Positions 23,314 through 23,580 of a stretch of 64,000 nt of DNA are shown here, piece by piece; position 1 is the stretch's first letter, and each line of letters starts with the position of its first letter. The stretch spans positions 1-64,000 of IMG/VR virus record IMGVR_UViG_3300047312_000028; one strand, written 5' to 3'. Origin of the DNA: a virus. Position numbers and translations under genes: made by a program. The notes below the pieces were generated by a model. That model saw only the letters and a program-made list of their open reading frames with translations, made no database searches and had not been told where the DNA came from.

Positions 23314-23363
23314 TATAAATACGAAAGAACGTGCTTGACTTATGTGCTCGATTGTGTTAGTCT
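23314..23363 (+). promoter_or_regulatory. Tandem T4 late-type (TATAAATA) and sigma70-type promoters upstream of the tRNA array
   Basis: TATAAATA 23314-23321; TTGACT-17-TAGTCT 23335-23363. Confidence 0.65.
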
Positions 23364-23384
23364 CTTCAAATAAAGAAAGAAATT

Positions 23385-23504
23385 ATGCGTTGCTCTCATA
23401 GTCTAGATACAAAATTGAATATCGCGGAATGCCCACAGCCTGTGGAATATACAGCCTGGCAGGCATCACTCGGGATTCAATTCGGCAATGCAACCATGAA
23501 GTAA
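23385..23504 (+). CDS. 39-aa leader peptide MRCSHSLDTKLNIAECPQPVEYTAWQASLGIQFGNATMK
   Basis: ORF lies between promoter and terminator; contains all 20 amino acids. Confidence 0.6.
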   Translation: MRCSHSLDTKLNIAECPQPVEYTAWQASLGIQFGNATMK

Positions 23505-23507
23505 ACA

Positions 23508-23580
23508 CCGTAACTACCATCTCCCCGGTAGTACGGGGAATCAGAGAAGCCGGGGAGAAATCCTCGGCTTTTTGTTTTTG
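23508..23580 (+). terminator. Intrinsic terminator with overlapping antiterminator (attenuator)
   Basis: AAGCCGGGGA-GAAA-TCCTCGGCTT plus T-tract; TCTCCCCGG (23520-23528) complementary to CCGGGGAGA (23550-23558). Confidence 0.8.

Follow-up and report, generated by a model that had tools for sequence, protein, structure and literature searches.

An open reading frame (ORF) of 39 codons, a hairpin beside its stop codon and an intrinsic terminator form a leader at the head of a long array of tRNA genes in a phage genome, and we propose, with a probability of about 0.65, that this module is a transcription attenuator that is sensed by the ribosome, samples all the amino acids and controls entry into the array of tRNA, tmRNA and RNase P RNA genes. 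The proposal is built on comparison of the sequence with its relatives. By means of such a module the phage would probably meter its tRNA supply by how well ribosomes decode. What is new is that the conserved property of the leader is the presence of all 20 amino acids and that its proposed targets are the decoding machinery, i.e., a full tRNA set, tmRNA and RNase P RNA. The window, by which we mean the whole 64,000-nt stretch of DNA analyzed here, is part of a complete 176-kb virus genome recorded in IMG/VR. The phage is a myovirus whose kinship to cultured T4-like and similar phages is only distant; in the cultured phage collection, matches were found at the tRNA level only and tail-protein identity was below 30%. 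The features of the locus are as follows.

23314..23321, + strand: TATAAATA box matching the T4-type late-promoter consensus, with CTAAATA at the equivalent place in relatives
23335..23363, + strand: sigma70-like promoter, with TTGACT at 23335-23340, a 17-nt spacer and TAGTCT at 23358-23363
23385..23504, + strand: leader ORF of 39 codons, with all 20 amino acids, 32 distinct codons and a UAA stop
23508..23536, + strand: hairpin A, in which 23508-23518 pairs with 23527-23536 (4 bp, a bulged A and 6 bp) around the loop AUCUCCCC
23520..23528, + strand: 5' strand of a putative antiterminator or pseudoknot, made of 7 loop nt and 2 nt of the 3' arm of hairpin A
23522..23539, + strand: hairpin B, an alternative fold between the C-run 23522-23527 and the G-run 23534-23539, available once the 5' arm of hairpin A has been covered
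23547..23579, + strand: intrinsic terminator, with a stem at 23547-23570 of 10-13 bp, a GAAA loop and a T5-G-T5 tract
23662..34087, + strand: array proposed to be controlled, with about 35 tRNA genes for all 20 amino acids
28445-28796, + strand: tmRNA gene in the array
31495-31797, + strand: RNase P RNA gene in the array

Relatives of the leader were sought by three routes. Through synteny, the gene that follows the array led to contig G006, which carries a similar array and a leader with weak collinear DNA similarity to that of the window. DNA patterns derived from the conserved motifs were searched in viral and metagenome contigs, and profiles of the peptide alignment were searched in two protein collections, the latter route being independent of the RNA motifs. 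In all, 16 distinct homologous leader peptides of 34-41 amino acids were found, all in uncultured phages and 14 of them with DNA, and they fall into two clades, with 11 peptides of the window's type and five of the G006 type. A repeat protein search with all 16 peptides returned no further members. Long repeat proteins matched by the peptide profile were rejected as relatives, these being Ig/mucin-like low-complexity matches. Pfam and Rfam yielded no family match for the leader module, an exact-match search for the terminator yielded no match and no relatives of the upstream 174-aa gene were found. Synteny via the 369-aa gene at 16019 recovered relatives in which the flanks of this gene have no tRNA genes, and one contig recovered in this way carries a leader and an array elsewhere. 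No leader was found in array-less relatives of the 308-aa gene, which is weak evidence, as these records are only 7-33% complete.

Same-strand tRNA genes follow all 10 distinct leaders that have enough downstream DNA (12 of the 14 scanned loci), usually in the order Ala-like, Ile-GAT and Trp-CCA, and in the gene-called contigs a 175-aa HNH endonuclease gene lies 0.45-0.9 kb downstream of the leader with two exceptions, one of which is too short. The ORF, the stop-adjacent hairpin, the complement between hairpin loop and terminator, and the terminator itself, which an earlier note made from the window's sequence alone had described as a leader and attenuator, proved to be one conserved module ahead of tRNA arrays. 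The phage group is found repeatedly and in several environmental metagenomes. Several homologs (L054, L056 and L057, from the ENA samples ERZ1292623 and ERZ1292625) are on contigs of 117-175 kb whose names, which start with Hain_, suggest an aquifer (groundwater) survey. The leaders and terminators of L050, L052 and L051 are identical; their sequences diverge right after a conserved spacer, where two of these contigs have gained about 100 nt ahead of the first tRNA gene. This difference of L050 and L052 from L051 suggests indel turnover at the head of the array.

The 39-codon ORF with all 20 amino acids and 32 different codons is found at 23385-23504 as described before. The earlier note took full amino-acid coverage in the window, together with the architecture, as the real signal, and for the coverage this did not hold: a peptide of 39 residues contains all 20 amino acids with a chance of about 0.005, and among 837 random small ORFs of the 176-kb genome 4 do so. 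The coverage is significant across the 16 homologs, and it is to this comparison, not to the window alone, that the significance is owed. With the phage's own amino-acid frequencies the chance per homolog is 0.001-0.007, yet 12 of the 16 peptides are complete and the remaining four have 19, 19, 18 and 16 amino acids, with a mean of 19.5 over all peptides. Kinship might inflate the number of complete peptides, so two controls were used. When residues were permuted within the alignment columns, separately for each clade, a mean of 4.7 complete peptides was obtained and 12 were reached in none of 20000 shuffles. When evolution was simulated on a neighbor-joining tree with site-specific residue pools and a complete root, the mean was 2.4 and 12 were reached in none of 5000 simulations, in which the sequences stayed more alike than the real homologs are. 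The observed count exceeds both null models and so favors the earlier note's claim that amino-acid completeness matters.

Completeness outruns both null models because single-copy residues relocate between alignment columns. C, D, E, F, H, I, R, V, W and Y each occur once in most homologs, and for C, D, E, F, H, R, V and Y the column that contains this one copy differs from one homolog to another. For instance, H and Y of L061 are exchanged relative to their usual places in the other homologs; in L047, R is gone from position 2 and D from position 8, with an inserted R and a new D elsewhere; and L056 has V replaced by L at one site and an otherwise invariant A replaced by V at another. Judged by these alignments and by the two null models, the holding of all 20 amino acids is kept by selection. 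Neither clustered regulatory codons nor any tandemly repeated amino acid was found in the leaders. One reservation on the sampling of all 20 amino acids concerns methionine: the start Met would not probe elongator tRNA-Met, and of the 16 peptides 12 have an internal Met and four do not.

Several features indicate that the leader ORF is a coding unit, and it is presumably translated. The ATG and the UAA stop are present in all 14 homologs with DNA, and length varies from 34 to 41 codons across the 16 peptides. Pairwise dN/dS has a median of 0.49, with values below 1 for 95% of the pairs; the invariant Ala that precedes the invariant Trp is encoded by four different codons among the homologs; and no conserved helix was found inside the ORF by RNAalifold. 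Most relatives have a ribosome-binding site of the AGGA type at a distance of 5-8 nt from the ATG, on its 5' side, and that of the window itself is A-rich and weak. L11, N12, W25 and I31 are invariant and H5, A24, A27 and S28 nearly so, and the motifs K-L-N, A-W-x-A-S and I-x-F-G are kept more than completeness demands, which hints at an additional constraint at the level of the peptide. The hypothesis that rare codons are the signal was rejected, as the leader codons lie at the 82nd percentile of adaptation and are typical of the phage. By reading of the phage anticodons, about 35 of the 39 leader codons are readable by tRNAs of the array, a match that is uninformative because the array reads most codons. 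An antisense frame of 76 amino acids (23383-23613), which spans the terminator, was also considered as a gene and was rejected: it is closed in four homologs and open in most, and no gene is called there in the relatives' contigs with genes listed.

The hairpin at 23508-23536, the 9-bp complement and the GAAA-capped terminator were each recovered where the earlier note had placed them, and the minimum-energy fold 3' of the stop codon consists of hairpin A and the terminator in all 14 leaders. Hairpin A, which in the window has an 8-nt loop and starts 3 nt after the stop codon, is present in all 14 homologs with 9-11 bp and a bulge or small internal loop, and the distance from the UAA to the hairpin is 0-4 nt in every one of them. 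Its stems fall into three versions that are unrelated in sequence, and UCUCCC or a close variant of it is kept in the loop. A terminator stem of 8-14 bp with a T tract is found in all 13 complete homologs. In a MAFFT alignment of the window's clade, on which covariation was scored, 85.8% of the cells of hairpin A and the terminator can pair and seven pairs are changed on both sides; seven double changes were reached by 3 of 500 shuffles, and slid controls gave 0-2. In the terminator stem, five pairs show changes on both sides.

The loop of hairpin A is complementary to the terminator. Positions 23520-23528 form a perfect 9-bp complement with 23550-23558, which lie in the 5' arm of the terminator, and a complement of this kind was obtained in 0.16% of dinucleotide shuffles (P = 0.0016). 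The loop-terminator complement is present in all 14 homologs, with duplex energies of -11 to -21 kcal/mol, and 88.6% of the cells of this helix can pair. The target of the pairing, GGGAGA, comprises the top of the terminator's 5' arm and the first bases of its loop. The core pairing CUCCC:GGGAG is kept in 13 of the 14 homologs, and in the remaining one, L059, it is compensated as AUCCC:GGGAU. There the loop reads UAUCCCCGG and the terminator arm CCGGGGAUA, and this double change from C-G to A-U, the one covariation event seen for the pairing, restores the perfect 9-bp helix at the cost of the GNRA loop. In two homologs, L058 and L061, the pairing is weakened. The earlier note had taken hairpin A and the antiterminator to be mutually exclusive. 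Their coordinates and the complement stand, but the exclusion is only partial because the antiterminator strand sits in the loop of hairpin A and not in its stem.

A further helix, hairpin B, would compete for the same strand. It has a predicted energy of -12.3 kcal/mol in the window and of -5 to -12 in the 10 leaders of the window's clade, takes the form of a 6-bp stem with a GUGA loop in leaders of the L040 type and is absent from the G006-type clade. When the first 10 nt after the stop codon were masked, the nascent RNA folded into the loop-terminator helix.

The transcript that carries these elements would start at either of two stacked promoters, one of the early sigma70 type and one of the late type, and would be headed by the ORF of 34-41 codons. 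Both promoters are present as the earlier note had described them. A CTAAATA or TATAAATA box lies upstream of the sigma70-like promoter in all 14 leaders, starting 71-127 nt 5' of the ATG (71-88 nt in 12 of the 13 leaders listed); such late-type boxes are strand-biased across the genome and, by analogy with T4 biology, the one in the leader is presumably a late promoter. The layout TTGAC[AT]-17-TAnnnT, with a spacer of exactly 17 nt, is kept in 13 of the 14 homologous leaders, and the distance from the end of this promoter to the ATG is 21-37 nt in 12 of 13; in the window, TGTG precedes the -10 hexamer. The same layout is the phage's early-type pattern, which occurs at 27 sites genome-wide and almost always on the + strand. 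Around the leader it occurs at 23132 and 23335 and next only at 36523, with none found between the latter two. The promoter at 23132-23160, 200 nt 5' of the leader promoter, is near consensus (TTGACA, a 17-nt spacer and TATGAT; 11 of 12 matches). Behind it the window has only ORFs of 28-41 amino acids, where relatives have a gene of 87-97 amino acids.

A complete leader stands ahead of a complete array, with 20 amino acids represented in both. The tRNA repertoire of the array was determined with relaxed ARAGORN settings and Rfam. The first tRNA gene, Ala-GGC at 23662-23734, scores 47 bits with Rfam and is missed by ARAGORN at its default settings. The earlier note had the terminator directly before the first tRNA gene, but the gene begins 82 nt past the T tract. 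This tRNA has a G3:U70 pair and a non-canonical T loop, and several other tRNAs of the array likewise need relaxed thresholds. The HNH endonuclease gene of the window (175 aa, 23923-24450) lies inside the array after tRNA-Trp, as it does in relatives wherever tRNAs were also scanned, and its place resembles that of the homing endonuclease SegB in the tRNA region of T4. The spacer at 23581-23661 is itself conserved. When the window was compared with L058, L061 and L040 downstream of their terminators, a GGGGAA-GAAUUUU string was found after the T tract in most relatives (GUAAGGAAAGG in the window), followed by two small hairpins with the loops CUAGUCA and CUGACUAAC, whose stems differ between homologs. 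The conserved spacer may be a processing site or a small RNA.

Entry into the array would depend on the terminator. No other strong terminator lies on the + strand from 23000 to 37000. In L056 the tRNA-Ala gene starts 2-3 nt past the T tract, so there is no room for another promoter and transcripts from the leader promoter must read through the terminator to reach the tRNA genes. A looser promoter scan of the window returned a candidate at 28235-28262 (TTGACT, a 16-nt spacer and TAGAAT with TG), which is inside an ORF just 5' of the tmRNA gene and could give the distal half of the array a promoter of its own, without need of the leader. As no earlier promoter was found and the terminator is the only strong one, at least the first 4.6 kb of the array needs terminator read-through.

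The best-supported mechanistic step is the geometric link between the ribosome and hairpin A. A ribosome with the UAA in its A site would cover about 10 nt past the stop codon and thereby 7-9 nt of the 5' arm of hairpin A, which is 11-12 nt long, so that finishing the ORF would have to open the hairpin. A ribosome that completes the ORF would thus melt hairpin A, whereas with the ribosome absent or held upstream the hairpin would be folded; a delay at least five codons upstream would suffice to leave it so. The terminator's 5' arm, about 20 nt downstream, is the predicted partner of the C-rich loop of hairpin A, and the position of the ribosome would in this way govern both terminator formation and the entry of RNA polymerase into the array. 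Since the ORF samples 20 amino acids in ordinary phage codons, the signal would be general decoding capacity and not the supply of a single amino acid.

We infer both the switching itself and its polarity, for which two models may be drawn. In Model X, the loop of folded hairpin A and the emerging terminator arm would form an H-type pseudoknot that blocks the terminator, with loops of 1 nt, 0 nt and 14-20 nt that are sterically acceptable. A ribosome at the stop codon would free the 3' arm, hairpin B would take the C-run and the terminator would form. A stall at any codon, or the lack of a ribosome, would then raise transcription of the tRNA genes. In Model Y, hairpin A would constrain its loop, and the terminating ribosome would open the hairpin and release a linear antiterminator of 7-10 bp. 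Read-through would occur only if all 20 amino acids were decoded in time, which would be a cis version of stringent control. Model X is slightly favored, as the conserved strand is consistently displayed in a loop and the chain of exclusive helices is found in 10 of the 14 leaders. Model Y, with the reverse polarity, is nearly as likely: one clade is without hairpin B, the helix extends into the arm of hairpin A in the window and L059, and the masked nascent folds show the linear antiterminator. The most specific version of the idea, a sensor of all tRNAs or amino acids in which a stall at any codon lets the loop of hairpin A trap the terminator arm, such that replacement tRNAs, tmRNA and RNase P are switched on only when host decoding fails, for instance under attack by anticodon nucleases, is tentative and, in our estimate, rather doubtful.

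Other explanations would separate the ORF from the switch. The leader might be an ordinary small early gene with its own terminator and a peptide that works in trans on, say, a host protein; the array would be fed by leaky read-through and completeness would have no regulatory meaning. Tiny genes abound in the early regions of phages, the motifs around L11, N12, W25 and I31 are conserved with dN/dS below 1, and in the window alone the count of amino acids is within chance, all of which such a gene would explain. A folded or binding micro-protein, however, needs no relocation of single-copy residues to keep completeness, and this relocation goes far beyond site-independent evolution. Nor would a peptide that acts in trans account for the covarying hairpin that all 14 homologs have within 0-4 nt of the stop codon, for a hairpin loop complementary to the terminator with one compensatory change or for tRNA genes that are always behind the module, and we consider this explanation unlikely. 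A nascent-peptide arrest leader, in which A-W-x-A-S...G-I-x-F-G stalls in the exit tunnel on one signal (a small molecule, an antibiotic or secretion stress) and sets the switch in place of amino-acid supply, appears somewhat more improbable. The C-terminal half is the most conserved part of the peptide, and L050 reads W, four residues and G-I-R-F-G, which resembles the arrest motif of SecM, where W is followed by a gap of four or five residues and G-I-R-x-G. The motif is nevertheless variable, with Q, P, S, T or F after the W and with F-G replaced in several homologs, and a ribosome with the F-G codons in its P site would leave a gap of about 9 nt to hairpin A. Arrest would also fail to explain why all 20 amino acids are selected for and why single copies relocate.

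The least probable of these alternatives is a switch operated by a protein or an RNA, in which termination would be set by a factor of the phage or the host bound to the loop of hairpin A or to the GGGAGA box, with the ORF either incidental or there just to bring in ribosomes that clear the site. All the stems covary, but the loop UCUCCC and the box GGGAGAAAUCC hardly vary at all, which is typical of a recognition site, and T4 RegB cleaves at the motif GGAG. On the other hand, the loop change in L059 is matched by a complementary change in the box, and RNA-RNA pairing is therefore favored over two separate protein sites; no candidate factor was identified, and ORF completeness would again be without explanation. 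Attenuation by a ribosome that samples all the amino acids is thus the reading that we prefer. If it is true, the virus gauges global translation capacity with a single 39-codon ORF and adjusts its own supply of tRNAs, and if the reading as a sensor of all tRNAs were also true, the module would be an on-demand counter-defense circuit written in RNA. Either bears on why large phages carry tRNA arrays and on the use of these arrays against tRNA-targeting defenses or starvation, and the module might find application as a compact part for sensing translation stress.

Leader-peptide attenuation is a textbook mechanism, and all leader-peptide attenuators known to us sense one or a few amino acids and control enzymes. 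Like trpL, hisL, pheL and the multivalent ilvGMEDA and thr leaders, the phage leader has a short ORF at the 5' end of the transcript. It also shares with the attenuators of amino-acid operons an intrinsic terminator before the controlled genes and, as the likely input, where the ribosome stands with respect to the first hairpin; a putative competing pairing upstream is a further resemblance. Unlike them, it has no codon run but every amino acid, mostly once and with conserved completeness; its ORF stops before the first hairpin, with no overlap; its antiterminator strand is in a hairpin loop, in the manner of a pseudoknot, and is not buried in a stem; and it would control tRNAs, tmRNA and RNase P RNA instead of biosynthetic enzymes. 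The genes behind the leader are those for tRNAs, tmRNA, RNase P RNA and the HNH endonuclease, with no biosynthetic or aminoacyl-tRNA synthetase target. The layout would work like a leader-peptide attenuator but lacks two defining features of that class, namely clustered regulatory codons and biosynthetic targets. In a full-text literature search, neither leader peptides ahead of tRNA arrays nor such control of tRNA genes turned up; reports from the 1980s are said to describe a Phe-rich leader, similar to an attenuator, ahead of pheU and pheV, the tRNA-Phe genes of E. coli. No T-box features were detected, as Rfam gave no match up to E = 10 save a chance match to RsaE on the opposite strand, and no boxA of the rrn type was found in the window. 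In L037/L028 (G006), a 9-nt string, CTCTTTAAC, follows the -10 hexamer and equals the core of the E. coli rrn boxA; G006 is the only relative with such a string, which overlaps the -10 and transcription start region.

In its antiterminator geometry the phage leader is closer to the transcriptional riboswitches of the pseudoknot type (ZTP and preQ1-I), in which pairing of a loop with downstream sequence that overlaps the 5' arm of the terminator decides termination. It differs from them in that it has no ligand pocket or Rfam match and in that the proposed effector is the translating ribosome. Under the reverse polarity it would resemble stringent control by RelA and ppGpp, since any amino-acid shortage would lower tRNA transcription, but the phage switch would act in cis through RNA, with neither ppGpp nor RelA.
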